DNA of 61,706 nt, the filler included, from Hausera hauseri (lineage: Eukaryota), in the NCBI GenBank assembly GCA_046269625.1. It is 13 parts of 13 records of this genome, joined end to end, with 100 filler letters (N's around TTAATTAATTAA, not from the genome) between each part and the next. Parts side by side here need not be neighbours in the genome. Positions count along the whole stretch, not along the records: positions 39,818 to 44,248 come from JBJURY010585556.1; 12 more parts are not named here. One strand, written 5' to 3'. A program made the position numbers and the translations under genes. Position 1 is the first letter of the stretch. Each line of letters opens with the position of its first letter. Positions 23,611 to 56,859 of this stretch are shown piece by piece. The notes beneath the pieces were generated by a model. It was given only the letters and a program-made list of their open reading frames with translations, had not been told where the DNA came from and ran no database searches.

Positions 23611-24243
23611 TTAAGAACCTCCAACATTTTTCCCCATTTTGAAAAAGATTCGGTCCTCCGGATCACTCTGGGTACTGACATCAACGAAGCTGAGATTGCG
23701 GAGTCTAATAATCAATGTCGCATCGTTTATCGGGTTCATCCAATGGCATAATCCCTGGGTTCGGTTGTCGTAGGTATAGGAGAAGTGGTAGTAGACTAAT
23801 GGTTGACGGCAGTAATGGCATGATATACCGTTCTGAAATGTCATTTGGAGTGCATCATTTGGATCAATTGATTGTAGAAATTGGGATCGGAGTTTGTTGA
23901 AACATGTTGCACACAGAGTGTGGTTACATTGGAATTGAACTACTGTTATTCTTTCGGTAAGGCAAATTGTACATTCATAAGTAGGAAGCTGATCATAAAA
24001 GAGAATTTGCAATGTTGCCCAAAGATCAGGTAAAGCTAGGTCAGAAATAAGATCAACTCGGCATTTACTAAGTACAGGAAACCAATCTTGTTGCAATGAT
24101 ATTGGCAATGGAGGACTATGAGATATAGTTGGTGTAGGAGTTATTGAAGGTGAAGGTACGGGTAATTCAGATAGTGGTCTAATGACACTTTCAGGATGAT
24201 AACGTGAATGGGGTATTGAAGATGGCTGTTCTAAAAGAGACAT
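23611..24243 (-). CDS. Intronless C3HC4 RING-finger protein (putative E3 ligase), 210 aa
   Basis: CTIC-x11-CNHTLCATC-long insert-CHYCRQP, a Pro/Ser-rich N-terminus, and ATG to stop intact. Confidence 0.8.
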   Translation of the reverse strand: MSLLEQPSSIPHSRYHPESVIRPLSELPVPSPSITPTPTISHSPPLPISLQQDWFPVLSKCRVDLISDLALPDLWATLQILFYDQLPTYECTICLTERITVVQFQCNHTLCATCFNKLRSQFLQSIDPNDALQMTFQNGISCHYCRQPLVYYHFSYTYDNRTQGLCHWMNPINDATLIIRLRNLSFVDVSTQSDPEDRIFFKMGKNVGGS

Positions 24244-28412: not shown

Positions 28413-28427
28413 GGAATCCTACGGAAA

Positions 28428-29178
28428 ATGAGTTATCGACAGCTCCTCAACGACCCCAGAATATTGTATTTCCCGAGAGAACCTCGGAATATAGAAACTA
28501 GATCACCTCTGTGGAAAAATCTAAAGTTAAAAACCTTCCAGAATATAGAACCACACACTGACAATCGAGAACCATTAATTAGTACACATGAAACGGAAGA
28601 ATTGAATATAGAAAACAATGAATTATATCCAAACGGAGAATTAAAACAGTTGTCGGAGAATATAGTATCCTCTCCAAAAATCCAAAACAACGGACATAAA
28701 ATATCAACGACTAAACGCCCAAAAGTTGCATCAAACTGTTTCGGCACAGTAATGGAAGGAAGACCCTTCGCCAAAATCATTATTGAAGATTGGGAAGTTT
28801 ACGCACTAATCGACACAGGTTTTGAGATGTCTTACATTAAGAATGATTCATTACCTCAAACGCTGAGAGAAAAATTATATCCACCATCTACAAAAGACAC
28901 AGGAAGCACAGGAGCTTTTGGCGAAATGTCGAAACCGATGTTTAAATGGAACCCAGAAGTTCAAATAGTTGGACAGTTTTTCCGTCACAAATTTGCACTT
29001 ATGGAACAATTAACTGACGACGTAGTTTTAGGATGTAATCTACTGAAAAGACTACCAAATATAGCAGTTGACTTACAAACAGAAAAGTTAATAGAAATCA
29101 GACAAAATAAAGGCGTAAAGAAATTTGAAGAAGTGTGGATACCAGTCGATGAAAATATTCCACCGAAAACAGAGATAA
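28428..29178 (+). CDS. Retropepsin aspartic protease (start of pol), truncated by the contig end
   Basis: RPFAKIIIEDWEVYALIDTGFEMSYI and DVVLGCNLL. Same frame as the glycoprotein, separated by one TAA. Confidence 0.88.
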
Positions 29179-31098
29179 NNNNNNNNNNNNNNNNNNNNNN
29201 NNNNNNNNNNNNNNNNNNNNNNTTAATTAATTAANNNNNNNNNNNNNNNNNNNNNNNNNNNNNNNNNNNNNNNNNNNNTCCACGAAAGATTTTTGAAATG
29301 TTTAAAAATACTAGGGTTTTGAGAACGTAAATTTGATGGGAAGTTAAACTGAGCAGCTAGCAGCTAGCATTTCATACCTTTTCTGGTTTTTTCCACCCAT
29401 TAAAATTTACTGATGTAATTTTTAATTATAATTAAATGATTAAACTTTAATATTTAAATTATCATTATGAGGAAACAATTGTTTTTAGTTTTTTTACCAT
29501 ATTTAAAAGCCTTCAGTGAGCTGTATACTGCAGGGGTCCATAAGGGGGGGGATTCTTCCATTTGGGGTCCACAGCCTTGTTTCGGTTGGAGGCACTGGTC
29601 TATTAGATGTTTACATAAACTAAAGGTCGGATGTTTGACTACACACGAGCCCGATGGTAACAAAATAATTGTGACCACAGTGAAGAGAATACCTCACAAT
29701 GACCTTGACCTTCCCGCTAGAGGACCCCTTTGTAAATGTGGAGTGATTAAGAAAAAGGTTGCTGAGTTGGGGAAAATTTGCGTCACTGATATTGGCGAGA
29801 AGTTGTGTAGGCATGTGGTGAGTTCAGTACCTCAACGGGTGGAAAATAAAGGACACCCGTGCTCACTAATATTCATGCATGAATAAACTTTAAAAATACG
29901 TTTCTGCTCGACTTTCTGAACTGATCGGCGGCACTGCAAATCGTTTTGTTAGCAATTTTAAAAGAACGTAATTCAGTTTGAAGTCCATTCCTTTCCATCT
30001 TGGGAAATCTTCAGCATCGTCGTGAAACATCCAAAGGCGCTGTTACGTGGTTCTTTGCAGAGATCAGAAGGTAGAAAACATTGGCAATCCTCAAAGATAC
30101 GTGATTAGAGCAGTGAATTTTTCGTCGCAAAAAGCCCAAACATATCTTCTGTGGGCTGCGAGGGCCAAACTGCTCATCCGTTCTTCGTCAAACACACATT
30201 CTTTTGATGGTTCAGTAATTCCGATTGATTCTCCCATTTCATTCCGGTCTGCACGCTACTCTGTACAAAGCCGTATAGTGAAATACATTTCCGTTGACTT
30301 TCTAATGTCAGCCTTCAATCGGTCTCTCCTTATCTTCAATCTGCTATTACGGTCCAACATAACATGATGCTCAATATCAGGATAGAGTTATAGATGGTGA
30401 ATATACGCACACAACAAAAAACCTATTGCCATTTATTTACTGCAACCAATATCACGTTGCACCAGAATCATTAATTCCCTTTTTCCTATTGAACAACAGA
30501 GGAAACCACCGCGGACGTTCTCTGTCCACATCAACAATATACCCGACATGAGTACGATAAACGTCATCTGTATCCGATTTGTAACGGAATTCAACAGGCG
30601 TGTTTAAATTTATTTTCTGATCCTTCAGTTATTCTTTCAATAACAATGTTTCATTGCGTACCTCAGTGTAACAATTAGCTGTCAATAAATAAGTCAGAGT
30701 CGACTTCAAAATAAAAACAACAAACTTTAAATGCAATCTTTTTCATACCAAAGTCCGCAATAATGACAATTGACGATATTCCGATTCAGTTCCATAAATT
30801 TGACGTTTTCTGCAATTAATTAATTTTCATTTATTTCATTTTACTTACGTTTATCGTAACGAATTCGACGACGTGCCTCAATTTATCGACGATTTTTTGG
30901 AACTGCCAACATCAAACAGTCCTTCAGAAATGAATTGAAGTCGAATACGTTTAATTTAGCCATTGGCAGACCATTATTAGCAATTAGGGCAACGTCAAAT
31001 CCTTCTGTAGAATTGATAAAAATTGCAAATCACTAGAATTAAAGAAAAATCAACCGATAAATGACTTCAAGTAATTAATGATTTGCTTCACTAAGTAC

Positions 31099-31333
31099 CT
31101 GGAACCCAGCAATAATTTTCTAAATAATTCAGGAGGTTTTTTCCACCAATATCCTTTGACATATAACATGAAATTGGTTTGAGAACATACTGTTTGACAG
31201 TGACAATTAAAGTGAGAGTTAGTAATACAATCACAGTAAAATGGAAATTGAATTTATCAGCAAAATCTTCTACACCGACATAACTCGTTACTTGAAATTT
31301 TGTGAGAAAGTCCAAAAATTCTGATGCCACCAT
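31099..31333 (-). CDS. inx: Innexin (gap-junction protein), first coding exon
   Basis: EDFADKFNFHFTV, TM1, KQYVLKPISC and YLENYCWVPG are innexin signatures. The exon ends at a CAG|GTACTT donor. The N-terminus resembles flatworm innexins. Confidence 0.93.
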
Positions 31334-36738: not shown

Positions 36739-39160
36739 ATGGAGCTTTCACCAGATATTCGTGAAAATATTGAGATACTTGAAGGTGAAAGTTATTCCTA
36801 TCGCCGAATTGCTGCTCGATTATGTGTCAGCCTTAGTTCTGTACAACGTGAAATTTCTTGACAGTCATATACAGGTAGTAATGTACGAAAGAAACGAATT
36901 GGGATACCCAGAAAAACGTCTGTAAGAACTGACCGTCATATCCGTCAAATAGTGGTTACAATCAGTATGCTGACATGTTTCCCCTAAAAAGTTTACAACA
37001 AAAGAAAGTGTTTCAATTCTTTAATTTAAAAAAGTATAGCAACGGAATTTCGGAACAAAATTAAACAACACTTACGGTTAATAAAGTAACAATCAAATTA
37101 CAGAGTTCAGGCCGTTTTCAGTACAACAGACAATCTTTTCTTTGAAGTGGGGGAATAGATTTTTCAAGTAAATTGGAGTAAAGGTTTTTGCTTTCTGTTT
37201 GATTCTTCATGCAAGTTGCGTCCGGTTTTTGACGGTTTAGATATTTTCTTATACCTTCAATTTAAGTTGGGCCCAGAAGCGCTCAATTGGGCGGATCTGT
37301 GGTGCACAAGGTAGGTTTTTCTCTTTGGGATTGAATGGTATTTTTTGCTTTTCAACCACTCCATGTGTCACAGCCATAGTGACACGAGGCTAGGTCAGGC
37401 CAAAAGATGTAATGTCCTCTGGAATAGATAGTGGAGAGAAATGATAATAAATGCTTTTTTAAGAATTTATTCACGTAAACTGTAGAATTGAGAGCAAATG
37501 AATTTGACTTGCGAATAAACAAAGAAATTCAAAGCTTGGAAACGGCAGCCCAAACTAAGATTTTGGAACAAAATTTATAGCGGTATTTCAAGGTAGCTCA
37601 TCAAGAACATTGTTTTTATCTGCTGTTGAGATGTAAAGTAAAATACAATAAAATAGAATTCATCATCTAATACAAACTCGGTTCTTGAGTGCTCGACGAC
37701 AAAATCCTTCAGAACTTGAATGAGCTCTTCGTGACGAATGAGTTGGTCAGGTGAAACTTTTGAAGCCTCTTTACGTTTTCTATAAATAATTTTTTCTTTA
37801 TGAAGTATTCGGGATATATGTGACTTTGAAATATTAAATTTCCTTCCAGGTTTCGAAGGCTTTGGCCTGTCTTTCAGATGGCAGCAGAAACAAGGCGTTT
37901 ACAACGCCTTTAATACTTTTTAGAACTTTTTCTAACACTTCCAGGCTTTCTCATTACTGTTGCCCTTTCTTTGTAACGTTTGAAAACCTTGCAAACACCT
38001 TGCCCTGTCATTTCTATGCCACCGAACTTCTTCACGGTGTCTGCTTTGAGTGGTTCAAATTTAGATGATCATTTCCGGTAAGGTCTTCATTTTCAAATAT
38101 TTACCAAACACAGCTAACAAATTTAAACAAACCTTTATTAATTCCTTTACCATCACAGTTATATTTTTCAACAATAAAATGTAGTTTAGTTAAATATTAG
38201 CGAAATTAATTTTTATTATGCGTTGATTAGTTTATAAACTTTTTAGGGTACACATGTTAGTAGCTCATTTGTGCAAGCTCAGCTGCCATCCCATGTACAA
38301 ATCCACACTTCAACAATACGCAGACGCCCGTCTGGAGAATTTGGGCTATCTGCTTATCGCCCATCTGTCAAGGCAAAGTTGTCAATCAAAAACATTCGTG
38401 ATCGCACGGCATTCTATCAAGCCCATAAAAATTGGACACAAGAACAATGGGCATCTGTTATGTTCATTGACGAGACCCTCATTCACCAATTCACACAGTA
38501 TGCCCCTTACGTACCACGACCAAGAAATCAACGTTTAAATCCCAGGTATGTTTGTCACACAGTAAAAAGTGCACCACCAGTCATGGTGTGGGGTGAAATT
38601 TTTTACAAAGGTCCAACGTAGCAAACAATCAATGCTGTTACATATGACGATATAATTAAAAAGAAGCTGCCACTAGCGATGCGCTGTACTCATTGTTCCA
38701 CTTTTCAGAACGATGGGACGTCATGCCATCAAGCCAAATCTACAAAACAATGGTTCCTCAACAACAATATCAACGTTCTCAGTCCTTGGCCTGGTTCATC
38801 ACCAGATTTCAATCCAAATGAAAACTGTTGGTTATTATTAAAGGTATCCTGCATGAATCCTACATCGTTGGAAGACTTGCGTCCAACTGTTGTCAATGTT
38901 TGGCACCGCAAAATTACTCCTGCATATTGCAAAGAATTAATAAATTCAATCCCTAGTAGAATGGCTGCCGTCATCGCAGCCAAAGGACACCATATTAAGT
39001 TTTAATTTGAACTTATATTACTGTTGATATTGTCTATCAAACTCTGTCATGTATGTTTAATATATATCTTTGTTTTTTCAAAAACTATTTTGTGAATACC
39101 TGTTTTAAATAATGAAATCAGTAGTTTACAAGTGTATTCAGACTTTTACACACCATTGTA
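36739..39160 (+). mobile_element. Tc1-like transposon, decayed and interrupted by a nested element
   Basis: HTH region SYRRIAARLCVSLSSVQR..GIPRKTSVRTDR, then WASVMFIDE, VMVWG, FQNDGTSCH and WPGSSPDFNPNENCW. 3' TIR CTTTTACACACCATTGTA. Confidence 0.88.
36968..38262 (-). mobile_element. ITm DD37E-like transposon nested in the Tc1 element
   Basis: TIRs TGCTGACATGTTTCCCCTAAAAAGTTTA and TAAACTTTTTAGGGTACACATGTTAGTA. Minus-strand FWPDLASCHY and PQIRPIERFWAQLK. Confidence 0.8.
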
Positions 39161-39308
39161 TATGTACATATATATCTTTTTTACCGTGGAATATTGTTCC
39201 AAATTTTCTTTATTTAGAATGAAAATTGGATATTAATACATAGAATAAATAATTTTCTTATTAAACAATAAGTCGTTTAGAGGACAATAATGTTGCAATT
39301 TATTTGGT

Positions 39309-39346
39309 TCTGATATTTCAATCTTGCTAAGATCTTCCTCAGAGTA
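39309..39346 (-). ncRNA. Minimal type I hammerhead ribozyme motif in the Penelope 3' region
   Basis: CUGAGGA-A-GAUCUU-AGC-AAGAUU-GAAA-UAUC. Core boxes and stem II are present; stem I is only 2 bp. Confidence 0.6.
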
Positions 39347-39427
39347 TGGACTTTTTTGATTTTTTGTGTTCGTGTATGAGTTCATTTTGTTGTTCTTTTT
39401 CTTTTTCTTCTCGTTTTTATTGGTTTT

Positions 39428-39717
39428 TTAGAAAAATATGCTATTTATGTCGCTGATTTCTTGTCTGACGTTCAGTTGAGGCTTGGATCTTCTTATGTGG
39501 ATGGCTTCTTTGACTCTTAGGTTAATCTGATCTCTTGCCGTGTCCAGTACCTCCGCCGAGAACTTTGAGTCAGATTCTTGTTGGTGTTCAAATACTGACC
39601 TTTTTTCGTCCTTGAGGTGTTCGGTTATTCTGGTGTGTAGTTCTCTTATTGTGCTGCCTATGTAGTTTTTGTTGCATTTGTTGCATGTCATTCTGTAAAC
39701 TACATTCTTCCTGAGGC
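39428..39717 (-). mobile_element. Penelope-like element GIY-YIG endonuclease
   Basis: KNVVYRMTCNKCNKNYIGSTIRELHTRITEH..LRVKEAIHIRRSKPQLN. Confidence 0.92.
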
Positions 39718-40138
39718 NNNNNNNNNNNNNNNNNNNNNNNNNNNNNNNNNNNNNNNNNNNNTTAATTAATTAANNNNNNNNNNNNNNNNNNNNNNNNNNN
39801 NNNNNNNNNNNNNNNNNTATTACTTTATTAATACATACTATTGATAATTCAAATTTAAAGTTAACAACAATATGTTCAATTTTCTAATATGTACAATTTA
39901 ACAGCTGTATTATCTAGTCATGTACAATTTATCAGCTGTATTATCTAGTCAATTCACAACACTACGGTTTGTTTGTTGTATACCAAACTTGTTTGAGTTT
40001 ACTGTCCTTTTGAATTTTGTTTCTTTTTTCAACCATTCACTTAAACTCTGAACGTTAGTTGCTCCGTTTTTATCCTCTTTCCAACGGTCATATTGCACTG
40101 TCATTTCTTTTGGTAATTTCTTTATTATGTTGTGGTAT

Positions 40139-40290
40139 AGGAAAGTAGTTATAAAAGGGCTGGTATAAACCGGCCTCTCAAAATTTTTAAAACTTTCTTC
40201 ATTTGCTCATCTCCTAACTACCACTCGCTCATGAAAAATTTTTTAATTTGAAAAACCGACTCATACCAGCTCTTTTACAACTACTCCCAA
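40139..40290. mobile_element. Small MITE
   Basis: Inverted ends AGTAGTTATAAAAGGGCTGGTAT and ATACCAGCTCTTTTACAACTACT. Confidence 0.65.
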
Positions 40291-40469
40291 CATTTCAATT
40301 ATAGAAATATACAACAAAAATGACTTCAAATAATTCCGTTTGTAAATTTTGTGAAACAGGTCGCATAATTATGAAATCAGACAATAAATATGCATGGAAT
40401 GAAAGTACAATTTGTAAATGTTGTATTAACATTATAAAAAATATACAATACAAATGAATAATCCGGAAT

Positions 40470-41625
40470 CGACTGCTGTAACTCGTCAAACTGTCGCTGC
40501 ATCGATTGCAATCGTTGTAAGAATGCAGTATTGTCAGTGTATGAAGGTGCGTGAGCGGTTGCTGCAGCTACCGGTTGTTGACTATTAGATTGCAATATAT
40601 CAAAACTTTTGTCTGCCAATAAAGCGAGATTTTCAAGGGCACTAGAGTCGTCTACTACAGTGCCGAAAGGAAATACCGACGAAGAAGATCGGCATTTTTT
40701 ATAGGAGTGACGCTTAAGGAAATCAACTGAGAGATTGCAGTTTTCAGGAAGTCCGATGGTTTCTGATTTCCGATGGCATGCTCATTGAAGTATTTTTGAA
40801 TTATGCTGTCAATGGAAGGGTCGGTTATATGCGGAACTGATTCATAAAGCATATCATATGGACTTGAACAAGCAAGTATGTCAGCAAGATTGTTGATTTG
40901 CTGCTTGATGTTAGCTGGAAGTAATAGCAGCAAACTGTTTGCCCGCAAAAGGAGCCTGTAATATCATGGGCTTTAAGCCATTGCAAGTGGAACTGCAACC
41001 AGTACGACTAGAATTCGTCTTATCTAGAAAAAAATCCGTGCAGGGGAGATTTGGAGATGTAGTTGGTGTGGTATTGGCAAGACGACGACCAGATCTGGTC
41101 TTTGTGGAGTTTTCCACATAGGAAGGATCGGCGTGCAATCCACCCCGTAAGCGAAAATGGAGCATGATACAGGTGTATGAACGTTCGTGGCGTACGAAAG
41201 ATAGGAGGGAGTCTGAAGGATGTACTATAAGCCCTTTATATGTTAAATAAAAATCCGAAGTGCTATGTGATGAGGTCAAAGCGTCATATAAGACTTGTGC
41301 TGTCTCGTTGAGTGGAACTTGTAAGGTTGTGATGTGTTGATTGTAACTAAAGACCCGAAAAAATTGTAATGAGCTCATCCCAAAGGAACGATAAAATGCA
41401 CGGGTGGCCTGGGCGGTTACCTTTTGGATTAAGAAGCGGTTCGAGCGTACAGCCGGGATAGCGGTGACTAAAGATAATTGGGATAAAAAGATGTTAAGTT
41501 TAGAAACCCTTTAAAATGAAAGATAGTTTGAGCCAGAAAGATTCCGTAAATGCGCAGAAAGCGGTCACATTGGTGGGCGCGAATCGATAAAAGAAATCTC
41601 ACCCACTTGTGTTTAGACACCTCTG
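40470..41625 (-). mobile_element. CsRn1-like element, second 5' copy: leader plus UBL-gag, 3'-truncated
   Basis: Collinear homolog of about 17970-19150; GNQKPSDFL and NADLLRRYF are shared. Confidence 0.9.
41139..41378 (-). CDS. 80-aa ubiquitin-like module ending LHFRLRGG at the Gag N-terminus
   Basis: ATG to GG is exactly 80 codons. DFYLTYKG lies at the position of ubiquitin RLIFAG. Confidence 0.82.
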
Positions 41626-41862
41626 ATGGTTTCATGTCCGCCGGTCGATCGGTGAGGTTGATGTTGACTCGCGTGATGTCCTTAGAATCAATACGGTGGT
41701 CTGGTCCAGAGTTTGAAATCCAAATACCTTGTCCAGTGATGCGATTTCTTTCGACAGCAGCTGTTCAATTTTGGATAGATTGAAACTTTTGAGTTTTTCT
41801 TGTTCAAGAGTTTGAACTTTATAATTAGGAATTTTAATCGGAGCCTCTGGTGGCAGAACAAC

Positions 41863-42120
41863 GGATGTCAAGGAACCATTTATCTGGAAATCTAGCATCA
41901 AGTCAGCAACTTGTTTTTTGAAGTCATCGGATTGAATCAACACGCCAGTTTTAAATTTATCTTTAGACCTTTTAATCATTCGTTCGGCATGCATAGTCAA
42001 TTTCTTCATGCAATTGTGCAAATAATACAACTGTTCAGTTGCCATCGATAGCAAAAGATTTGCGAGTTTCTGTTGCCAATCACTACAATGTGCGGTAATA
42101 CTGTTTTTAGACATCGACGT
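41863..42120 (-). pseudogene. DNAH2: Two joined fragments of an axonemal dynein heavy chain (DNAH2-like) within mosaic ORF 41632-42327
   Basis: KNSITAHCSDWQQKLANLLLSMATEQL and ERMIKRSKDKFKTGVLIQSDDFKKQV resemble recalled DNAH2 segments HCNEWQNKFATLL and MLKKHKEKFKTGLIHSADDFKKK. Confidence 0.7.
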
Positions 42121-42541
42121 TAGATTCGAATTTGACGAGACAAATTCAAAATACGTGCAATACTGTGAAATTGATTGGGTGTACGTAATAAAAATTGAAA
42201 GTTTAATTGAAAATCCATTCAGGTCATGCAAAATGGAGTAGTAACATTTTTGCAACGAATCACTTGATTCTTTCAATATATCGACATTCAAAACATTAAC
42301 ACAATTGATAAGATGTTTGGCATACATTGGGATTGTTTTTGAAACTTTGAAGTAGTCAACTTTGAGTTGAATTGCCGGATTTTCTTCTACAACCTTATGA
42401 GATTTGATATAAGGAAATATACTAATAGTCGACTTATAAAAATACCATGATTATTTCTTCAAAGGAGCATATTCGTGTACCCAAGCAACTTGATCTTCTG
42501 AAGGATAGAATAAACTTTCGTAAAGGATGCTTTGACCGCTT

Positions 42542-44248
42542 TTAGAATATGATGGATACTTTGACGTGTCGAGAGACTTGGTGATTTCTTGATTGCTTGT
42601 CAATTCTTTTTTTCGGAGTTTTCTGATTCGACTTACGATCAGTTAGTTTGCTTTGCAATGACAAATTGTGCATCTCATCACAGGGTTCCAAAAACGCCTG
42701 CTGGTAATAAATGAACAAAAACTGAAACAACAGTTTCCTAGCTTCCTCCATGGAATAGGTTTGGAAATCAGACAAGAAAAACTGAGAGGATGAAGTGAAG
42801 CTGACATTGAAGTAGCCATCACATGACGTTAATTGGATACAAGGCTCAAAGATGCCGAGTTTAGCACAGAGGCTGAAAATAGGATGGAATTCAGATGGGT
42901 AGTCGTTGGTGGTTATCATCGTTGTTCTTGGAAACAAACTGTGACAATGCGCAATGGAATCCATCTGTGTTTTACTTTTCCGTTGACTAATAAAGGAATT
43001 ATGTGGCAGATTATTAGGCCGTTTGTTTTCAAAGAACTCTTTTGGTGGAGCCGGTGACACTTCATCAAAAGAAGCATCAGTTGTGACCATTTTTCGTCCA
43101 TAAAACTCATAACTACAACTATAATTTAGATTTGGTGCAACTTTGGTATGAATTCTATGTTTAAGTTTGGATTTTGTTGGAAACACATCAAAACTTTCGT
43201 TGGTGACCTTATGGACTGGTTTAGGAGAATGAAGTCTCATTCCATGAGAAACATCAATTAACGTGTAAGGTGCTACTCTGTAGCATCGATTTTGATTTCC
43301 GCGAATTCGGATACCTTTAGGGAACTCCTTATCAAACAAAACTTCAATCCAATGATCACCATTAGACTTTGGTTCGATACCGATGACTACACTACTAAGG
43401 CCAATCGAAACACAATGACATTCGGAAACAAAAACTACTCTGTCTAACAAACGAAACTCGGTGATTCGATCGGGCTTTGCAGATTGCACGGTAAAGTAAG
43501 GCACGTAGAGTTTCTTAAATTCTACTTCAACTTCATTCGTAGTTCGATTATCATCCATTTTTTGATGTAAATTATCAGCAATAGCTTTCAATATTTCGAT
43601 TAATGAACTGCGAATGATTTTATGACCATTACTCAGTCGCTCTAGGCCTTTACATGACAAACTGTCAAGGTACTCCTTTAGTTCATCGCATCTTTGTACT
43701 GCTAATTCTCGATCACCATCATAACTGAAAACGTCTTCCAGTGAAAAATTATCCGATTCATTATTATTCAGAAACTCAAAAATATCAGGGAACTTCGTTC
43801 GGTAATCTTCAAGCAGTCTTACGACTTTCAAAGTATACATCCAAATCCCATTGCTGTTTTCCGAAGCCGAATCAAACGTTTTAATCCAATCAGGAATCTG
43901 TTCGTTCTTCTTTTTGTTTTTTAAATCCAAGCCGATGTTAAATCGATCGTGTTTCCGTTTCTTTCGAATGTAGTTATCAACCATTTCTGTTGGACAGTTG
44001 ATGAATATCGAACCGGTAATTCAAGAAACCAAAAACGGACTCAAATCCAGATATTCTGCAGCCTGTGACGCAGACATGTAGTCCATGTCCAATTTATCAA
44101 CGTCGACTTCACCATAAAATGGATCGTTGATAGAGTCAGTAGCTACCTTCACGACACTCTTCGTATTTTCGATAGCCGGAAAAATAGTGGCAAGTATATA
44201 TTGTGATAAAAGAATATCCAAAGTTTTTGAGCTTAAAAGGTTTTCAAA
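42542..44248 (-). pseudogene. XRN1: 5'-3' exoribonuclease 1, C-terminal portion, intronless, with one in-frame TGA
   Basis: LVS*ITGSIFI (normally SRITG), NIGLDLK, LLEDYRTKFPDIF, FRLLDRVV, VLFDKEF and LIDVSHG. Confidence 0.88.
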
Positions 44249-45528
44249 NNNNNNNNNNNNNNNNNNNNNNNNNNNNNNNNNNNNNNNNNNNNTTAATTAA
44301 TTAANNNNNNNNNNNNNNNNNNNNNNNNNNNNNNNNNNNNNNNNNNNNCAAGATCTCACACTCACGATGGCGAACGTCCCTGAACTGCCTCGCCTCTGAC
44401 ATCACTGTTCCTCCCACACTTTAAACCCTGGATATAACCAGTCACAACATAACGTACGCAGCCCAGAGGAACCGTCCTCCTCACGGCCCGCCTTCATTAA
44501 ACACTCCACCAGAGGAACTAATCCCAGTTAAACACGCCAGAGATGAAAACGAACACCGCAGTTAAGTGTGCATCACTTCATCGTCCCTAAACCGCCCTGC
44601 TGGTGGAGAGGAACGCCTCCCTGCGTCACAACCGTGAATCATCGAGACCATGAGCACGGCTCCTTCTGTAATCCACGACTGGAGGATTACCGAAGCACGG
44701 AGACATGAGAGACTCTTCATCCCTCAACTTCTCAAAACCTTTTTAAATAACCGCTTAAAACCTTCCTCCCAAACTGGCTTGCGTGACCTTCACGTACGAA
44801 GCTGAAAGAAGTGACGGCGCAGTACGAAACGAACAAAGAAATAACTGAGCATATATGATACGGCTAACTTTACCTAGAAGTAATGGTGACTGCAATGAAA
44901 GCAATTTTGAAAAACTTTATTAATTCATACCTCCGTAACCACCAGTCTAAATCGCACATAACTTGATAGAAATATGGTATAGGCGAATTTATAGCTGCTG
45001 TTGAATACAGAACATGGAAAAATACATGGTATCAAAAAATTAATCAATATTTAAACTAGATATTGAATCGTGTCCCAAAAAAATAAATTTTTCGCTGCCA
45101 TGTAAGGTACATATACGTTATGTGGCCCATTTAAAAATCGCTCATGAATTAACCCTCATTTTTTCCATTAATATTGCATGTCATTGAATTCGTGAAGTCT
45201 GCACTTATACAATTTCTCCATACGAACACAAATGGACATGTAATAAAATGAAGAATTTTTTAATTTTAACCCACTGAATTTTGATATCCATAACAAAAAA
45301 TGCATGTGCAAAATTTGGTTAATCAATGATTCAACTACAACTTGATTTATTAAATATTTCTTATGGATGTTGAATCCACAATTATGTAAGTTAAAATTTC
45401 AACCATGTAGTTTCGTGTGATGACTTCAGTTTTAACTGTGTCGCCTACGTAATGAATCCATTTTAAATTATAATTTTTTCACGACAAAAATAGTTAAAAA
45501 CACTAAATATATGTGATAAGTTTAGATG

Positions 45529-46243: not shown

Positions 46244-48289
46244 TTAATTTCCGGTCTTTGATTTCCGGTCTTTTCGGACATCTCCCTCCTTAGATGATGC
46301 TGTCCGCAGCATCAGAGGGTAGGCCTCGATAATTCCATTAGAATCTTGGTAATCAACAGATTTGATGTGGAGTAATCTTCCTTTCTTTCTAATCTGCTTC
46401 TTCAAGGTGATTGTCTCTGTTTTTAGGGTTTTATTTTTCTTTTTCGGAGTTTTCGTTAGATCAATAAGAATTGACTCTGGGGAACTAGCTATCGTTAGCG
46501 GATTTAGATCAATGTAACAATCTCTTGTAGAAGTTGATGCCTGGTCATTGGCAGATTGGGTGAATGTTGGGCGATCGGCGTTTAATTGGGTATCTGAAAA
46601 TTCTTGTATATCCATTGGGATTTGGAATTGTTCACTTTGATATTCCGGAATAGAGTTATAAATTTTTAGTATTGTTGTCGCTTTATCTCTTGTCCTTTGA
46701 GGGTATACATTACCATTATACTGGGTAAGAATCTGTTTGGCCGTAAATATTCGTTGGGGATTGATACTATCATGATATAGCAATTCTCTGATTCCCAATA
46801 GATTGTTGTAATCATATCTAAGGATAGTTGCAAGGATGTGGTAAACATCAATGCCTATGATTACTTTTCCAGCGATTGTTTTTCTTATGAAAGGTTCTTC
46901 ATAATAGGAATCCTTCTTTCCAATAATATGATCTTCTTTTAGTCCAGTTATGTGACTGTTGTAGTTGTCAATTTTTTCTCTGGGGCATAAAATTTCATCT
47001 AGAACTATTTCGCCATTTAAATTCATCAAGGTTATCTCTACCGTGGTCATCTCGGTATTTCTAATGGGAGTGAATAGGTATATAGGGTTTATGGCCATTA
47101 TTAACATTTCTTCTTTTAACGCTATTGATCTTCTTGCAAATGATAATCCTTTCTCCACATCGATTTCTTTTGGTTTGGGAGTAGTGTATTTAGGAATTTC
47201 ATAATCCAAGCGCGGTATTAGGTCTCTTTTTATGACTTCTAGATAGATTATTGGGGACGGTCCTTGACATGTTCGTAAGGTAATCGTGGCGTTGGCGTAC
47301 AATCGAGGATCCAAACGAACTGTTATACGGGTTAAGACTTCCATTACATCTATAATCCCGTTGGAATGTGACTTGCTTTTGAGCTGGATAGTTCCTTTAG
47401 CCACGGAGACGTATATAGCATAAGTACGTCCGGAAGTATCTATCAGATCGGAAAGGTTAGTTGAGCTTTGTCGTACTTTGATTATGAGACTGCTCCTTTG
47501 CTGGACTGAATAGCCTTTAAGATTGTTAGGGATAAAAACGGCTTTTCCGTAATAGCAGTAATCTTTGTTAGAGGTGGCCCATAAATTGGATAGGATATGA
47601 TTATAAAAGGAGTTGGGTCTTTCGGTTCTTTCTGCACCTTCTTGGACTAAAAATAAAAGCATTAATGTTAGCCAAGCGGTTTTAAAAAAAGGAATGTTAT
47701 CATATTTTGATTGTCGGTTTTTTATATAGGTCGCCAGGAATTTTGCGGCCTGATCATGGGTTTTTATACAGAGACATACGGTTGTGTCTTTCAACGGTCG
47801 GGTCTGCCGCTTTTGATCGGTAAGTCTTTCAACTTGCCGTTGGTTTTCTAAGAAAGGCGCGCTTATATCTTGTAACGATACCTGGGAATCTCCCCTTAGA
47901 ATTTTTAATTGGCCTAATATTTCCCTTATTCTACTTTGTCGTCGCCTTATTTTTGAACAGTAAATTACTAAGGGTAAGAATATGGCTAGTAATACTAAGA
48001 AAGCACATAATAAACTAATTATCCAAGGATGTTTATTCGAGGTTTGTTCTGGTTTTTGTGTAGTTGTTCTTGGCATAATTTTAGGGGTTGTTATTACTTG
48101 TTTTAAAGTCTTTTCTATACGAGAAGTTGTTCGCAATTTTTCTCCTTCATCATCTAATTCTATTATGATAACTTTATAATTTGTGTCTGCTTTTAGGAAC
48201 ATACATGCAGATGTCGGTTCTTCAGGAGTTAAAACTCCTTCACTAATCACTCTATGGTTGAGATAACACTCAAATTTTATATTTGTGCT
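46244..48289 (-). CDS. 5'-truncated membrane protein with an inactive DEDDh (REXO4/ISG20-like) exonuclease domain
   Basis: Open to the contig end (more than 680 codons). Thr-rich stalk, TM WIISLLCAFLVLLAIFLPLVIYC and a basic stop-transfer segment. ALKEEM..ITLMNLNGEIVLDEILCPREKIDNYNSHITGL..GKVIIG. Confidence 0.72.
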   Translation of the reverse strand, partial: STNIKFECYLNHRVISEGVLTPEEPTSACMFLKADTNYKVIIIELDDEGEKLRTTSRIEKTLKQVITTPKIMPRTTTQKPEQTSNKHPWIISLLCAFLVLLAIFLPLVIYCSKIRRRQSRIREILGQLKILRGDSQVSLQDISAPFLENQRQVERLTDQKRQTRPLKDTTVCLCIKTHDQAAKFLATYIKNRQSKYDNIPFFKTAWLTLMLLFLVQEGAERTERPNSFYNHILSNLWATSNKDYCYYGKAVFIPNNLKGYSVQQRSSLIIKVRQSSTNLSDLIDTSGRTYAIYVSVAKGTIQLKSKSHSNGIIDVMEVLTRITVRLDPRLYANATITLRTCQGPSPIIYLEVIKRDLIPRLDYEIPKYTTPKPKEIDVEKGLSFARRSIALKEEMLIMAINPIYLFTPIRNTEMTTVEITLMNLNGEIVLDEILCPREKIDNYNSHITGLKEDHIIGKKDSYYEEPFIRKTIAGKVIIGIDVYHILATILRYDYNNLLGIRELLYHDSINPQRIFTAKQILTQYNGNVYPQRTRDKATTILKIYNSIPEYQSEQFQIPMDIQEFSDTQLNADRPTFTQSANDQASTSTRDCYIDLNPLTIASSPESILIDLTKTPKKKNKTLKTETITLKKQIRKKGRLLHIKSVDYQDSNGIIEAYPLMLRTASSKEGDVRKDRKSKTGN

Positions 48290-48389: not shown

Positions 48390-49167
48390 AAAAATCTTGG
48401 CTGATACTAATCGTAATTGGACGTCCATTCTACCATTTGTTCTACTAGGTTGGCGCAACACACCTTCGACCACTACCGGTTGCGCTCCAGCCGAAGCACT
48501 CTTTGGGACTCCAATTAGGGCCTTATTTGAGCTTTCTGATCTCGACGACAATCCTGCAGACGAAAACATTCGTGCGGCACAATCTCACTTCGTCGAGGTC
48601 AGCTCAGATTCATTCTGCCGCCTCTTTAATAACAACAAATCCTACATTCCGAAGGATTTATACTCCGCCAAGTTTGTGTGGTTAAAAGATCAATCTCCTT
48701 CTGGTTTTAGACCTCAATATGTTGGCCCGTACAAACTGCTGAATCTTTCATCTCACACAGCAACAATCTTACACCAAGAAAAACCGTACAACGTCCACAT
48801 TTCGAATCTGAAGCCTGCCTTTTTCATTCACGACATTCAAGATAACAATTATACATTCAATTCAGACTCACCTAGTAATTCCACTGACTTTTTAAATGAT
48901 TTTGCGTCGGTGCAGCAATCACTACTTGATTACACTCAATCATCATCATTTCCTCCATCCATCTCACTTCACTCTCCGTCATCATGCTCACAACCTTCAT
49001 CTTCTTTCTTGCTTGACTCATTTTCGCTACCACCCCAGTCACAAAATATCACACAACAGCCCAGCGTAAATCCATCGAGTAAGGTACGTAGAGTGACACT
49101 CAATACGTACAGCAGAGAAAAGCTCTTTGATGGCACACAACGCCTGACCCGTACTAAAACTGATTAG
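48390..49167 (+). mobile_element. CsRn1-like integrase C-terminus (same family as 14058-19304)
   Basis: WTSILPFVLLGWRNTP, PQYVGPYKLL, VHISNLKPAF and a Ser-rich tail. Confidence 0.92.
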
Positions 49168-49258
49168 GAACCAAACATTATTCCTTCTTGCGATTCATTG
49201 TTGTAATCCGTATTATCTTCATCATTCTTTTTCGCCTTTACATAGTTTCTCTTTTGCC

Positions 49259-49658
49259 AAGGGGGGGGAAGTGAAGTGGTGCCGCGGCCGTGGGCGTGCT
49301 TGTCTCCTCGCCGGATTTGCAAATTATCACAATTCAAAGCGGACACAATTCAATCAATTGGAATGAAACTATGCTGATCGTCAAACGTTGCGAACACAAT
49401 TCGGTCGATTGAAAATATTGGAATGAAATTATAATTGCCAGTGAATAGACTTTCAAAGACAATATTCTGTATATATGTATATATTCATATGATGTATATC
49501 AAGAAAATATAAATATTAAATATTGATAAATAATTTGTAATTGTGATTTCAATACAATTTAAGCTTTTAGATTTATTCATTATCTTTTTACATCGCCTGG
49601 ATTACTTTATCGTTGGATTTATTTATCTAATTAAACAAGACCCATATTGGTGTCAGAA
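49259..49658 (+). repeat. PPT, LTR-like segment and tRNA-Leu-type primer-binding site
   Basis: AAGGGGGGGGAAG, then TGAAGTG at 49272. ..CCCA at 49644, followed by TGGTGTCAGAA (49648-49658). Confidence 0.65.
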
Positions 49659-49789
49659 TAAAACTAAAACCAACAGCTATTGTATTTAAAATATCCGAAT
49701 TTCATTCTTCTTCTATAAACATTACTTATTTTTGAAGTATGGAAAAATGCCGAGTCTTATCTCAATTAAATTTATTAGAAAAATATACA

Positions 49790-50668
49790 TCTGACAGAAG
49801 TGCATTCAAAACAAAAGACGATGAAAGAGTTACATAAAAAATTTTGACTGCAATAAAAGGAAACGAACGCATTTATCGGAATATCATCGTCAAAAATCCG
49901 AGTTATGTAGATGCTCTAATAAACACACTTCAGGGAATAGTCGATCCAGCCATCACGTACAATGCTATGAAAATTATAAATGAACTAGTTGCAAAACAAA
50001 ACGCTCAGAAAAAAGACCAAATTCTAGTCTACCATTGTGCAACAAAAGCGCTCTTGCAATGCATCTATTTGAAGTCAAGAGAACAAAATCCAAGTGAGGA
50101 CTACATGTTCCTTCTTCATCAAGTACTATACCGAGTTGAAATCAAAGATAAAATAATCGGAGTCCGAGCCAGATTGTGTCAATGTCTAAACGTTATTGTA
50201 AATTTACTGAGTATCCATGTAAATCTCATTCCAAAAAATCGAATTGCAACTGGCGGGATGACCATCGTTTCTCAGCTAAGTAAAACTATTATCAATATTT
50301 TACAGATTCTTCGACTCTATTGCCGTAATTTGATTAATGCATCTCGTCTGGGTCGTATTGGTGTTGTAACTTTTTTGCTAAAGATGATCTCCTGTTGCGG
50401 AAAGAGCAATTTAAACATTTTAAGGATCACCTTGGATTGTTTATATCTATATGTTCGAACTAAGAGTAATTCACAAAGAGCACTTAATCAAGGAGCTATG
50501 TCAATGTTATTAGATTTATATTTGGACTGGAACAAAGGAGAGAGCAAAGAGAAGCAAATCGCTGGACGGAAGTTCATGTTAGGCATCATAAAGCACTCAA
50601 TTAATTTGAGAAGCGGGAAAAAAGCTTTTTTTTCGAAGCCGACGGACTACAAATACTACATGCGTTCT
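49790..50668 (+). pseudogene. AGTPBP1: Cytosolic carboxypeptidase 1 (Nna1/CCP1) N-terminal armadillo-like fragment, intronless
   Basis: KDKIIGVRAR, NASRLGRIGVV, KSNSQRALNQG..LLDLYLDW and GKKAFF(EADGLQIL) match the recalled CCP1 pattern. Frameshift in a T8 run near 50630. Confidence 0.8.
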
Positions 50669-50670
50669 GA

Positions 50671-50937
50671 GATGCCTTTGTCAAACCGGGATTACCGATG
50701 AAAAATGCATTAGACAGAGTCACAAAAACATCGGATGTTGAATTTATTCAAAATGATGTACGATTATATGGCAATGCTGCAATGAATATGGGAATAAAAT
50801 ATCCGATGAATTTGTATCATTTCATTACAACTTTATTAGAAAAGGACATTAACCATGAAGTCGTCAGGGATGTTATGAAGAACTTTCAATATTACAATTT
50901 GTTTATGGATGAAAGTGCAGATACGATACTGGATTTC
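50671..50937 (+). pseudogene. HYOU1: Hsp70-family HYOU1/GRP170 N-terminal fragment
   Basis: AFVKPGLPMKNALDR..RLYGNAAMNMGIKYP..LLEK vs recalled AIVKPGVPMEIVLNK..RFFGDSAASMAIKNP..LLGK. Confidence 0.72.
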
Positions 50938-50939
50938 AC

Positions 50940-51460
50940 TAATATAACACCAATGAAATCAATGTTTAAACTTCGAAAATCAAAGACATTCAATCGACCA
51001 TCAATTTTTTATAAAGCATTTATTAATTCTAAGGAAAAATTTGTTCTGTTTCGAAGGCTTTCAGGACTTGTTTTACAATCTACCAACGATAAGAATTTTT
51101 TGGAAAAGTTTCGTAAAATTAAGCATCCTTGTTTGATATCAGTAAATCAAGTTTTTGTCACCGAAGAGTTTGATGACCACTCTACTATTTTTATTACCGA
51201 TTATTATCCATATCACTGTACAATTTTGCAAACGTATCTCAGTAATGTTGGAAAGTTAATTGGATTTTCGTCTCGGTTTAATTTGAGTCAACAAGCTCGT
51301 CCATACAGTTCAAAAAAACCGTCTAATCTGAACATGTTACTTGAGGATAAAACTTGGTACTACTTTATTCAAATAATCAATATTAATTCAAATAATGACT
51401 TTCCATCAAACATTCTTTGTTCCCCGAAATACAATTATAAAACCAATCATCGGGTTGTTC
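50940..51460 (+). pseudogene. PAN3: PAN3 pseudokinase fragment, in frame with the HYOU1 fragment
   Basis: FYKA..LFRRLSG..FRKIKHPCLISVNQVFVTEEFDDHSTIFITDYYP..ARPYS..LLEDKTWYYFIQI. Confidence 0.78.
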
Positions 51461-51700
51461 TTATAAATCAAATACTCAATTGGGCTGTTAGATCTGGATA
51501 TTTTAATCAATATCAGTATCGTAACCGTCAGGCATATAAACGTCGCGACAATTTGAGGCCGAGAATAAGGAATAGATTTGAGTGTGTTAAAAATGGTTTG
51601 GCTGTAAATTGCAGACCAAATGGATGGTGTAGTAATTATTGCGTAAAAATGCAGAACTGGTGATTTTTACAATGAGCGCAATACGAAAAATAACTTTACA

Positions 51701-52741
51701 ATGTTCAATCCAATGTGTGTACTTTTTGCAAAATTAGATTTCATGTACGCCCTTAATATTATAACTGAGCACTACCATCCCTATATGAATCGGTTTAACT
51801 TTCTGCTCTCTGGTTTGTCGGGATCTATATCGTTAGAAGTTAGAACCAAATTTCAATTTAATTTTTATAATGATCTGTACGAAATTACAACAACTGAACA
51901 TAAACAAAAGTGTCGTCGTTATTTTAAATTTTTTCAATCACAAATATTCAAGGGTAATAACAATCTCATCCTGTTCAACTTTACGGACATTCTCAATTCG
52001 TCTATAATTGGTCCATTTGAAATAGAAATGTCACCGTCATTTCCGACTCCATCGAAACAATTGCGACCAAAGTCAAGTCCTACGTCACTTAAGTCTTATA
52101 ACAATCATCCTACCGTTAGACAGTGTTCGAGGAACTCAACTCCGACAACTTATTGCTTGACCAGTCCCGACGAAATAACAAAAGGTAATTGTGACAGTTT
52201 TTCGTACATTCAATCATTTAAATACTCGTTGCCCGACATTTATGCTTCAGCTTTTGGCGAATCATTTTTAATTATTAAACTATCATCTGGTTATATTGAA
52301 TTTCACGAAATCGACTTTCAAACTGGTGAAACCGACTGCCGTTTCAACCTACACAGTCACATTGCATCGGTTTTTCAATTGTCCATCTCTCAAAAATCAT
52401 GTTTCATAGCCAGTGGCTACATCAACGATTGGATTAATGCTTTGCACATCAAAGATAGCTGCCTTTTGATCCACCGTTCACATTTATACAAAATTATGAT
52501 GATTGTATCAATTTGTGAATTTAATTTGCAACCTACCATTTTAAAACCAAAATCGCAATTCGCATCTAGTTTGAAATTACCGCTTACAATGTATCGAAGT
52601 ACTGGTCGTCCTACGACGATGGTCACTCATACAAGGGATTCTCTGGTTGAGGGACCGAGCATGTCCGCCCCCGCTGCGCCGCGTCACTTATCCCTGTTAA
52701 TTTTTTTTAATAACACGCACATCAATACCTTTTATGCTCCA
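51701..52741 (+). pseudogene. Mosaic-looking ORF including a single WD40-like segment
   Basis: SSGYIEFHEID..LHSHIASVFQLSISQKSCFIASG, with abrupt compositional changes. Sources not identified. Confidence 0.4.
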
Positions 52742-53607: not shown

Positions 53608-56600
53608 TGTGCCGGACTAACCATGGCGCAGGTAGCGCACGTACGCCGGGCCTCCGAGCTGTGAGGGCCTTCTAGTCTAAAACAAAAATGACTTTTTAAA
53701 CTCATTCGATACTGATGGGACCTGGGTCCAGCCCTAGGTGCTGGGTTTGATGTAGTCGGTCCGACGGTCCCCGGTCTATTTGTTTACGTCGTCAATTCGC
53801 ATACCTAACATTTTTAAAAACAATTAAAAAATGATTTAATTGCCCCTTTGACATCGTCTACTCTTAACTTGCTTAAGTGTACTATTTGGATCAAGGTTAG
53901 GGTTAGGGTACAGCCGTACGGGTTAAGGACATTACGCTTATGGCGACTCCAAAACTGGCTTACGTTAAAAAATATGTTGCGCATTCAGTACTGCATTCGA
54001 TGTTCGACGATGTACCTCAATTAAAATTTTATTGAAGTTTGAACTCTAAGCTTAAATTTAAGTCTAATGTACATTTTTGTTTAAAAGCTTGATTTGCCTA
54101 CTTCTTTTGTTGTCTATTTACTTCATTGAGCTCATTCCGGTAATGATTTTGATGAATCGTGTCATTTATGTAAAGTATTTTTGTTGGCAATAATAAGTCT
54201 ATTCTTTTTATATTTGGATTTTTCTGTGTCCAAATGACTTATGTAAAACACTTTGCAATTGCTGCCCAGAAAAGAAAACTTAAAGCCAAAGTGGAGATAT
54301 ACATCCATGAAGTTCCAAAAATCAGTGCATTTCTTTCTGTTCATTTGTCTCCTACTCCTGTCTGAACTTTCACCGAAGCTGCTGGGAATTCCGCTGTAGT
54401 CAAAACCTAACCATAAGATAAAACATATGCCGAAACTCCTTCAATATCTGTCGATGCTAAAGTTCTTCCAACATCCGTCGATGCTAACATTCCTCCAACA
54501 TCTTTTGATGCCTCTTAAAATCCTTTGACTACTGCAGAAAACAATTATTCTTTTCCTCTGAGGGATCCTGCTCTCTGGAACACTGCTGATTATCAAATTG
54601 TTTATTATTGGATTTGGTGTGGACCTGAAACGTGTAGGAATCATGATGGCCATTACGCCAAATTATCCATGATCATACATAAAATAAATAGGAAGTTCAG
54701 TAATTCGGCATTTGTGAAAACTCTTCCGTCCGGTAAAACGAAACAGATGAACTGGTTGCTGTATTCGCCGACTACTGGTCGTGTTTTTTGTTTTATTCGC
54801 CTATTATTTTTCAACAGTCAATCATGTTTGGCAAAAGATAGATTCGATGCATGAGATCACATAAACAGACTCTCGGAACATGAAGAATCTGCTGATCATC
54901 GGCGAGCAGTGACCCAGTATCCCATTCGAGTCGCCAACAAAAAGACATTGGATCATGTTCTAATTGAAGAGCATAAAAAAGAAAAACATTATTAGAGAGA
55001 AGTCCTGAAATGTACCGTATCCACTGTGAACTTTCTGGCTGGTCCAGGTCTAGTATTTCGTGGATCCGATGGAAAATTTGGTGGCCTTAGCAAAGGAAAT
55101 TTCCTTGGATGCTTGGAGTTGTTGGTTAAGTACGACCCATTCTTAGCAGGTTATTTTGAAAAGTATGGTAACTCAGGACGTGGTAAAGCATCCTATCTTT
55201 CTTCAACAATCTGTGATGAATTTATTAAACTAATGACTAGTCACTTAAAGAATACAACCCTTAGCGAACTGAAGATTGCGAAGTACTTCTCGTTCACTGT
55301 AGACTCCACTTCAGACATCACACATATCAATCAGTTGACTTTTACTATTCATTATGTTTCAATTAATGGCGATCCAGTTGAGAGATTTATACTGTTCGTT
55401 CCTATTGCTTCTAATACTGGTGAAACTTTGTACCAAGTTATCAGAACAACATTTCAAGATCTTGGAATACCTATGGGTGACTTTGTCGGACAGACGTACA
55501 ACAACACGTCCAATATGTTTGAAATTTTCAACGGATTTCAAGCTAAACTGCTCAATGACAACCCTAGAGACGTTTTATCCCCTGTATGGCTCATTTTCTA
55601 AATCTTCCTGGTAGTACTGCAGCAGAATCCTATGCCCAAATAATTACCTGTTTCGGAGATGTACAGAAATTATACGTGTTTCTGTCGACCTTTGCTTTGC
55701 AGTGGATCTGTTTCTAAGCGACTGAGTAAAACTCGGTGGTCAGTACGTGTTGATGCGCTCACTAGTTTGAACTCAAACTACCAAATGTACCTTTAAGCTA
55801 TGCAATACATCGCCAAATACCCGTTGCAGACGAAAGCTACCCAAGTTGAAGCTGATTCAATGATCAATGCACTGGTGAAGATGAAAACACTTTCTGATAG
55901 CATTTTGGAGCTGTGTTCTGAATAGAACAAATAAGACCAGTAAGTTTCTTTAAAATTAAAAAGCTGGTCTGGGATCTTCAGTTTGTCTTCTTAAATCACT
56001 GAGTGAGTTTGTTGGAATGGATTAGAATGAGTTGTTGAAAACAAGTTCGAAGAGTTTGTTAAGGTGGGGTAGAAATGTCTGGATTATCAAATTTTTCTGA
56101 GAGGCGGAACTGCAGATGATCAAAGTGTTCAAGGCGACACCATGTCTAACCCAGAAGACGAATTTCGAATATCCACTTTTCTGTTGATTATAGATTTCCT
56201 TTTTCTTAATCTAAACAAGAGAATCAAAGCGTACTCAAAGGTCGACGAGCTGTTCTCGTTCTTACAATACACTAATGTAGAAGTAGATGTGTCTTTGAAT
56301 GGAGTCGTAGATTTCTACTCCAAAGATGTGGAAGATGTGAACACAGCGGAGAATGAATGGTTTCAGTGGAGATTACTGCTTAACAACCTCAAGGCTTGAC
56401 TGTTCAATTCCGGAAATCCTGAAACTAATGCGGCAGAATGATTTCAACACATCTTTCCCGACCACCTACATTCTTCTTCGTCTCTATTTGACTCTCCCTG
56501 TAACGAACTGTACCGGTAAACGCTCCCTTACTCACATGAAACGCATTAAATCTGCTCTAGGATCAGCACAAACACAAGAGAGACTAGATAACCTACCTCT

Positions 56601-56859
56601 GTTGAACACTGAAAGTGAATTGCTTCATGAGTTAGACTTTTCCTCAGTTATTGATGCCTTTTGCTTAGCTAGATGTAGGAAGAGATCCTTCTGACTTAAT
56701 TTTTATATACCAATATCATGTGTAAATACTCTACACTTTTGCGCCTGTTTTCGTCAAAAATATGATGATAGAATTTTCTGTTCAAAATCGATTTTACAAC
56801 ATTTGAGAGGTCTCCTTTTCAAAGGGCGCCACGGTCTCCAAAGTCTTAATCTGACTCTG
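53608..56859 (+). mobile_element. hAT transposon (ZMYM1/TTF-zinc-finger type), decayed
   Basis: WLLYSPTTGRVFCF, GNFLGCLELL, YLSSTICDEFI, YFSFTVDSTSDITHINQL and FPTTYILLRLYLTLPVTNCTGKRS. GC-rich subterminal ends. Confidence 0.88.

Follow-up and report, generated by a model that had tools for sequence, protein, structure and literature searches.

The window analysed here, a 61,706-nt stretch of Hausera hauseri DNA, consists of 13 contigs of 3.9-6.1 kb (c1 to c13) joined by 12 identical 100-nt linkers, each made up of N44, a six-frame stop 12-mer and N44. The mosaic tract described below lies on contig c9 (39818-44248, 4,431 nt). Position 44248, which the first-pass annotation took as the boundary of the tract, is the end of this contig; an artificial 100-nt linker follows (44249-44348), and nothing past 44248 is part of the mosaic locus. 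No tRNA or Rfam family was found in the window, and an innexin exon on c7 points to an invertebrate host.

The 3' part of XRN1 occupies positions 42542-44173 (minus strand), as indicated by Pfam, a Drosophila Xrn1 match and an alignment with the homologue P0003. A single minus-strand frame encodes the D2/D3 region (Pfam E 1e-17), the SH3-like domain (E 4.5e-14) and a lineage-specific tail; the catalytic domain is absent. Drosophila Xrn1 (2y35) matched this piece with an E of 1e-11, and P0003, the nearest among 233 representatives, was 34% identical over 475 columns. The frame comprises 568 residues when one TGA is read through and, since P0003 shares the tail up to residue 528, the native stop probably marks the end of the piece. 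The premature TGA (44021-44023, minus) falls at the conserved arginine of SRITG, as originally noticed, and both outgroups, P0002 and P0005, read SRITG at this site. XRN1 had been described as 1.7 kb long and intronless; Pfam confirmed its identity and no intron was seen, and its length was reduced to 1.63 kb, because the first 75 nt belong to an element leader.

Downstream of the XRN1 stop, a 91-nt spacer (42451-42541, minus) is followed by a 272-codon open frame, which would hardly arise by chance (P about 4e-9 from composition). Neither AATAAA nor poly(A) was found in this spacer or elsewhere in the tract, the sole A7 run lying within XRN1 coding sequence. The frame was characterized, from its 5' to its 3' end, by 111 open codons with no assigned identity (42118-42450, minus; chance of staying open about 4e-4) and, in frame with them, two pieces of the dynein heavy chain DNAH2, which agrees with the initial description of an ORF patched from unknown segments and dynein. 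Piece a (42001-42117, minus) corresponds to a stretch of the tail, at about residues 1018-1056 in chain 8j07_k9 (18.7 bits; E 0.014 independent and 8e-8 conditional), with 17 of 39 residues identical as counted off the printed alignment; piece b (41722-42000, minus) corresponds to residues about 1130-1227 (32.2 bits, independent E 8.5e-7), with a core identity of 20/47. The two pieces abut in frame at 42001/42000 and skip 73 residues, so that their non-adjacency in the native protein, as proposed in the first-pass annotation, holds for this chain. DNAH2 chains were the sole matches of the frame at E ≤ 10 among 177,635 PDB sequences, which weakens the objection that the dynein similarity might not be recovered by search; the homologue search gave no match for this frame. 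The 111 preceding codons were blank in Pfam (including a six-frame scan), in the PDB and in the homologue search, and their single-sequence model (pLDDT 43) had no Foldseek match. Envelopes of the HMMER dynein matches extend back to DNAH2 residues 960 and 921, a hint that these codons are possibly decayed upstream DNAH2. The last 26 or so codons of the frame (41710-41632) overlap a putative LTR.

At its 5' end, the XRN1 piece is fused directly to the leader of a CsRn1-like LTR element, that is, to the 5' region lying 3' of the primer-binding site (44174-44248, minus), which is cut by the contig end. Positions 44248-44174 matched 18992-19056 of a near-complete relative on contig c4 (77% over 65 nt, E 2.4e-7), with a local score of 70, whereas 500 shuffles reached 38 at most; in the global alignment, 55 of 75 positions were identical and none of 1000 shuffles reached the score. 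XRN1 homology begins (residue 25) where the leader match stops, which places the junction at 44174/44173. At the level of sequence, this junction is direct evidence of an element fused to host coding sequence, and it is the best evidence for capture, the visible upstream flank being 75 nt only. We also considered an in-frame fusion of an element ORF to XRN1. This was dropped although the frames agree: the junction precedes the probable gag start (located at 41378 in the downstream copy) by about 70 nt, so that no fusion protein is implied, and codon-position identities at the junction show no coding signal.

The state of the XRN1 frame was compared with expectations for neutral decay, under which 543 XRN1 codons would contain 0.8 stops at 1%, 3.9 at 5% and 7.7 at 10%. 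The single stop observed thus corresponds to a decay of a few per cent only (P 0.004 at 10%). The SH3-like domain scored 52.6 bits, versus 62.4 and 64.3 in the nearest relatives (P0003 and P0004), and 25 of 38 conserved sites were kept, versus 35 of 38 in P0004. Despite these site counts, accelerated protein evolution with a preserved frame was dropped as an explanation, because none of six relative-rate tests against P0003 and P0004 was significant (P 0.14-1.0). In the homologue search for a parental XRN1, a single match was obtained, to a beetle XRN1 at 28%, and a three-sequence alignment gave none; no XRN1 closer than 35% was present among 1.84 billion representatives.

These data bear on two further possibilities: that the genome has a single XRN1 gene whose last large exon is seen here, the TGA being a sequencing error, or that the tract is an assembly chimera. 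The assembly is fragmentary, with contigs of 4-6 kb, the frame is otherwise open to the probable native stop, and both the relative-rate tests and the lack of a closer homologue (best 35%) are consistent with such a gene. However, homology starts right at the element leader, with no good splice acceptor by eye; coding sequence in the dynein frame resumes 91 nt past the stop, with no AATAAA between; the SH3-like score is lower than in the nearest relatives; and the combination of stop, truncation and fusion recurs for CCP1 on contig c11 (see below). The start within element sequence weakens the idea of a sole XRN1 gene with a sequencing error, which the first-pass annotation had named as a refuter of its own reading, and we consider either possibility distinctly improbable.

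At its other end, the tract is co-oriented with a CsRn1-like element (both on the minus strand), as had been claimed, but it abuts a putative LTR start at about 41710 instead of the element leader. This short 5' LTR (41608-41710, minus; about 103 nt) was delimited by eye on an alignment to c4 19250-19146; the call is tentative, since support is strong globally only (2 of 1000 shuffles reached the score, i.e. 998/1000) and lower locally (55 of 1000, i.e. 945/1000). The dynein match stops 11 nt before similarity to c4 sets in, at about 41710, and the 54 nt upstream of the putative LTR are unrelated to c4 (429/1000 shuffles); from these alignments, the LTR start is tentatively placed there. The LTR is followed by the start of a degenerate tRNA-Trp-type primer-binding site (41571-41604, minus), and then by the leader, a block ending in RLRGG and gag (40460-41570, minus; 69% over 508 nt to c4, with tblastx blocks), with a probable gag ATG at 41378. 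The gag has at least 3 frame changes and is cut before the CHCC motif, and no pol is present. Just past the gag cut, a 39-nt MITE-like inverted repeat (79%, arms 64 nt apart) was observed at 40144-40285, and the contig also carries a 31-nt tandem duplicate at 39889-39950.

The c4 element (14058-19304, minus) comprises a purine tract, LTR, primer-binding site, gag, protease, reverse transcriptase, RNase H and integrase. Its gag contains the CX2HX9CX3C motif, with a stop in the spacer; this motif and a tRNA-Trp primer site define the CsRn1 clade in the available part of PMC2582038. Because the c9 gag is cut before the motif, the c9 element was placed in the clade through c4 (69% identity). A 4-bp target-site duplication likewise characterizes the clade; no copy in the window has its two ends on a single contig. 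The first 7 bases of the clade's primer site, as given in that part of PMC2582038, match in 6/7 positions in c9 and 7/7 in c4, and later bases differ. In both copies, a hairpin (c9 41571-41604 and c4 19110-19143, both minus) is formed between the start of the site and a complementary stretch further downstream; its sequence differs between the copies (z -2.9 in c9 and -1.6 in c4), and it is a possible packaging or priming structure. Immediately upstream of the putative c4 5' LTR lie 12 purines (19251-19262, minus), as in an LTR shared head-to-tail. Elements with short LTRs are often found in shared-LTR tandems, according to the portion of bioRxiv 10.1101/158386 available, and c4 may be part of one.

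Directly before the LTR start, purines account for 6 of 12 bases in c9, versus 12/12 in c4 and c11. The idea that the purine tracts of c4 and c11 are homologous base by base was rejected (8/18, P 0.08), and purine content alone stands. A polypurine tract and 3' LTR of the same element were therefore not found after the c9 cargo. The two leader copies on c9 are homologous globally (0/1000 shuffles) and not significantly so locally; 48 of 65 aligned bases are identical (17 differ, about 25%), in addition to a 10-nt deletion. Because this divergence is too large for twins given the state of XRN1, the two flanks come from different element copies, and the downstream element probably represents a copy of its own rather than the second half of a single capture. 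Its separate insertion is the simplest reading. Against a later insertion, the gag is more broken than the cargo frames, with at least 3 frame changes in 0.9 kb versus none in 2.4 kb (P about 0.02); such damage fits a copy that was defective before arrival, or recombination with an older copy.

The block of about 80 codons that ends in RLRGG was observed before gag in both copies (18671-18928 and 41097-41354, minus). With its RLRGG end it may resemble a ubiquitin-like protein, and the element had been called a UBL-gag element. The gag part of this label was supported by the 69% identity to c4, whereas the ubiquitin-like part was not: neither copy had any Pfam hit at E ≤ 10, no ubiquitin was found in the PDB search, and the single-sequence model (pLDDT 52) had no Foldseek match. 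Identities between c9 and c4 by codon position were 0.74/0.79/0.28 in gag and 0.66/0.76/0.63 in the RLRGG block, which, unlike gag, shows no third-position excess of change. The block may be an old capture, constrained at the RNA level, or recently exchanged.

Compared with its homologues, the XRN1 piece contains no insertion longer than 8 aa in its core or 11 aa in its tail, and no intron was seen by collinearity in its 1,629 nt. An intron scan gave no hits in XRN1 (1,629 nt) or in the CCP1 piece of c11 (902 nt), and two overlapping intron-like hits in the 111-codon segment before DNAH2; the scan recovers one of two control introns. These controls belong to an MRPL32-like pseudogene on c7 (PDB E 0.0055), in which two GT-AG segments measure 39 and 47 nt; once they are removed, one frame with 3 stops remains, versus 10-11 in all unspliced frames. 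The lack of introns in the cargo is meaningful because the c7 pseudogene keeps its own, and it favours an RNA origin, a single control gene being thin; the parent genes were not found, and a loss of introns relative to them is putative. The same contig carries an intact first innexin exon ending at a splice donor (30600-31333, minus), with the MRPL32-like pseudogene within 94 nt and no further innexin exon found downstream on c7; the pseudogene either sits in an intron or is part of a DNA-level mosaic.

A DNA-level origin, in which genomic fragments were duplicated and partly deleted through a Helitron, a Pack-TIR element or replication template switching that took intron-free stretches by chance, can be weighed against these results. 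The intron-bearing c7 pseudogene shows that DNA-level duplicates occur here, the 111-codon segment contains intron-like hits, and a deletion after insertion into an XRN1 duplicate could also join the leader to XRN1. Such scrambling would nevertheless have had to draw on four genes, whose coding sequence here amounts to about 3.4 kb, all sense-oriented and with no intron seen, and to leave the dynein gap in frame. Terminal inverted repeats bracketing the tract were not found either, one end being cut by the contig end. We judge this origin unlikely.

The companion mosaic on c11 (48390-52741, plus) was composed of an integrase end, a polypurine tract, an LTR, a spacer, CCP1, PAN3 and an ORF. The integrase end is 70% identical to c4 and contains the GPY motif. 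The putative LTR (49272-49397) is followed by a 340-nt AT-rich spacer and, from 49739, by the N-terminus of CCP1/AGTPBP1 (PF25571, E 1e-54, from model position 2), which begins at its probable native start. Further downstream lie a PAN3 pseudokinase piece (4bwp, E 1e-12) and a 365-codon frame (51647-52741, plus) with a weak WD40 hint (E 0.12) and no homologue match. That the LTR was followed by a primer site and leader was rejected, as no resemblance between spacer and leader was seen (935 and 287 of 1000 shuffles). With the LTR end tentatively placed, the c11 mosaic thus appears to lie outside the element, as far as is visible.

It had been stated that the same family flanks both mosaics, suggesting a recurrent mechanism. 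The first statement holds in part: c11 carries a c4-like integrase end, but on a different contig, with the cargo beyond the LTR and with no direct match between c9 and c11, which are linked through c4 only (about 70% each). The second is suggestive only. The CsRn1-like family occurs on 4 of the 13 contigs, and both mosaics lie on contigs of this group (P 0.077); all five cargo orientations over c9 and c11 agree with the element sense strand (P 0.03), both probabilities having been computed after the fact. The two cargoes showed no similarity to each other, no second copy of the c9 mosaic was found in the window, and cargo was not separable from the other contigs by CpG content. RNA-decay genes account for two of the four identified cargo genes (XRN1 and PAN3), the other two being tubulin/cilium genes, and we treat the XRN1/PAN3 pairing as a lead, not a result.

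We favour, at a probability of roughly 0.55, the reading that the c9 tract is a multi-mRNA processed retrocopy, made by template switching in a CsRn1-like LTR retrotransposon and now a pseudogene. Host XRN1 and DNAH2 mRNAs, and the piece without identity, would have been copied by the CsRn1-like reverse transcriptase, which would have switched between host mRNAs and the element's own RNA. The product would have been the element leader fused to the XRN1 3' half and then to the dynein pieces, and the 73-residue gap would go back either to exon skipping in the template or to a jump along a single template. Most probably a different family member, the gag-bearing element at 41710, inserted into the dynein piece or recombined beside it, thereby hiding the original 3' end. 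We infer the RNA intermediate, the polymerase responsible, the template switching and the order of events; the link of the tract to the CsRn1-like family is supported, by the leader-XRN1 junction more than by the downstream element.

Template switching within LTR particles is described, in the available parts of PMC5131818 and PMC5470649, as producing partial, intron-free and sometimes multi-gene copies that are fused to the element and lack poly(A). The tract resembles the LTR-mediated retrocopies of Tan et al. 2016 (PMC5131818), as far as the available text goes, in its partial, intron-free pieces joined to LTR-element sequence at the 5' junction (here 44248-44174), in the absence of poly(A), in having more than one parent gene in a row in sense orientation, and in loss-of-function mutations with age. 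As in such copies, the pieces are cut at arbitrary points, with no AATAAA or L1-type hallmarks. In contrast, those retrocopies have both flanks from one element, LTRs at both ends and microsimilarity at junctions, whereas the c9 flanks are not twins, differing by about 25%, and no polypurine tract precedes the downstream LTR (6/12 purines), which argues against a canonical product. Because the 3' side thus lacks the purine tract and LTR of the same element, the assignment of the tract to this class is inferential, not demonstrated. The species listed in that part of PMC5131818 include no flatworms. Maize Bs1 (PMC5131818 and PMC5470649, parts available) is likewise an LTR element with exonic pieces of several genes; it exists in multiple copies that share junctions and has a coding role, whereas the tract was seen in one copy, with a premature stop. 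Ty1 retrosequences, according to the accessible sections of PMC7175516, are also cellular mRNAs copied by an LTR element and are incorporated at rearrangement sites, a route that could explain flanks from two different copies; they come from an experimental system, and no rearrangement is demonstrable on a 4.4-kb contig.

An RNA-derived mosaic could also have formed by another route, through a non-LTR or Penelope-type reverse transcriptase or through cDNA patched into a DNA break, in which case the leader would simply be a further abundant RNA among those joined, and the LTR elements nearby would be bystanders in a repeat-rich region. This would accommodate the missing polypurine tract, the flanks from different copies, the c11 cargo outside the LTR and a family found on 4 of 13 contigs anyway; a GIY-YIG piece is present on c8, and yeast retrosequences enter at breaks and rearrangements, as the available part of PMC7175516 describes. 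On the other hand, neither a poly(A) tail nor a target-site duplication is visible, though insertion may have cut off the 3' end, and no element sequence other than the leader of the CsRn1-like family was found in the tract. We consider this route somewhat unlikely, and retain template switching in the CsRn1-like element as the preferred reading.

A bolder version, that the CsRn1-like lineage habitually builds host-mRNA cargo in short-LTR tandem arrays and favours RNA-decay mRNAs (XRN1, PAN3), is highly improbable in our view. If real, the preference might arise because particles assemble in decay granules or, alternatively, because cargo turns the host piRNA response on its own decay genes, and the RLRGG block ahead of gag would go back to an earlier event of this sort. 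Compatible with the habitual-cargo reading are the tandem signature of c4, cargo frames that are less broken than gag, and the dependence of yeast Ty1/Ty3 particles on Xrn1 and P-body factors (PMC7175516, part available).

Among CsRn1-clade elements, PwRn1 and AgCR (PMC2582038, available part) share with the window elements the CX2HX9CX3C motif and the tRNA-Trp site start (c4), as well as the GPY motif (c11). The window elements differ in their LTR of about 100-125 nt, versus 381 bp in PwRn1, in a primer site that is degenerate after 7 bases, and in the RLRGG block before gag; cargo is not mentioned for the clade in that part of the paper. Host-like accessory domains are also found in the gypsy-type planarian element Burro (available part of PMC6431247), where they are in-frame parts of a multi-copy polyprotein, whereas the tract is broken and linked to another clade; XRN does not occur in that text. 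The Burro order, with env before protease, is shared by three copies, 72-82% alike, of a large element on c1, c3 and c6 (1-4070, 9480-13957 and 24376-29178), which encodes a CCHC gag, a coiled-coil ORF, a mononegavirus-type fusion glycoprotein and then a retroviral protease. Together with the innexin exon, this order makes a planarian-like flatworm a likely host.

Other features of the window included, on c5, a RING-finger ORF (23614-24273, minus) with a fragment of a retroviral protease downstream of it; on c8, pieces of a Tc1-type transposase and of GIY-YIG (38227-39715); a hAT-type transposase on c12 (54996-56691); and a GTGCA-rich repeat common to c2 and c13 in both orientations (8823-9379, 57713-57818 and 59442-59581). 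An intact 681-codon ORF (46244-48289, minus) has a hydrophobic segment and a weak DUF5527 hit as its only Pfam match; it also contains a putatively exonuclease-like stretch.

Literature searches at listing level, in a collection with few subscription papers, gave no description of retrocopies linked to CsRn1 elements, of a gypsy element carrying XRN1 or of a ubiquitin-like block ahead of gag in the CsRn1 clade. LTR-mediated mosaic retrocopies are known in kind, and the tract is probably a new instance. It would be surprising only if cargo were enriched for RNA-decay genes or silenced them, which four genes cannot show. Confirmation would add a probable flatworm and the CsRn1 clade to the range of LTR-mediated exon shuffling; with two such mosaics in 62 kb, the implied rate would be high. 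Copies of this kind mislead gene annotation and orthologue counts, as an apparent XRN1 or PAN3 hit may be cargo.
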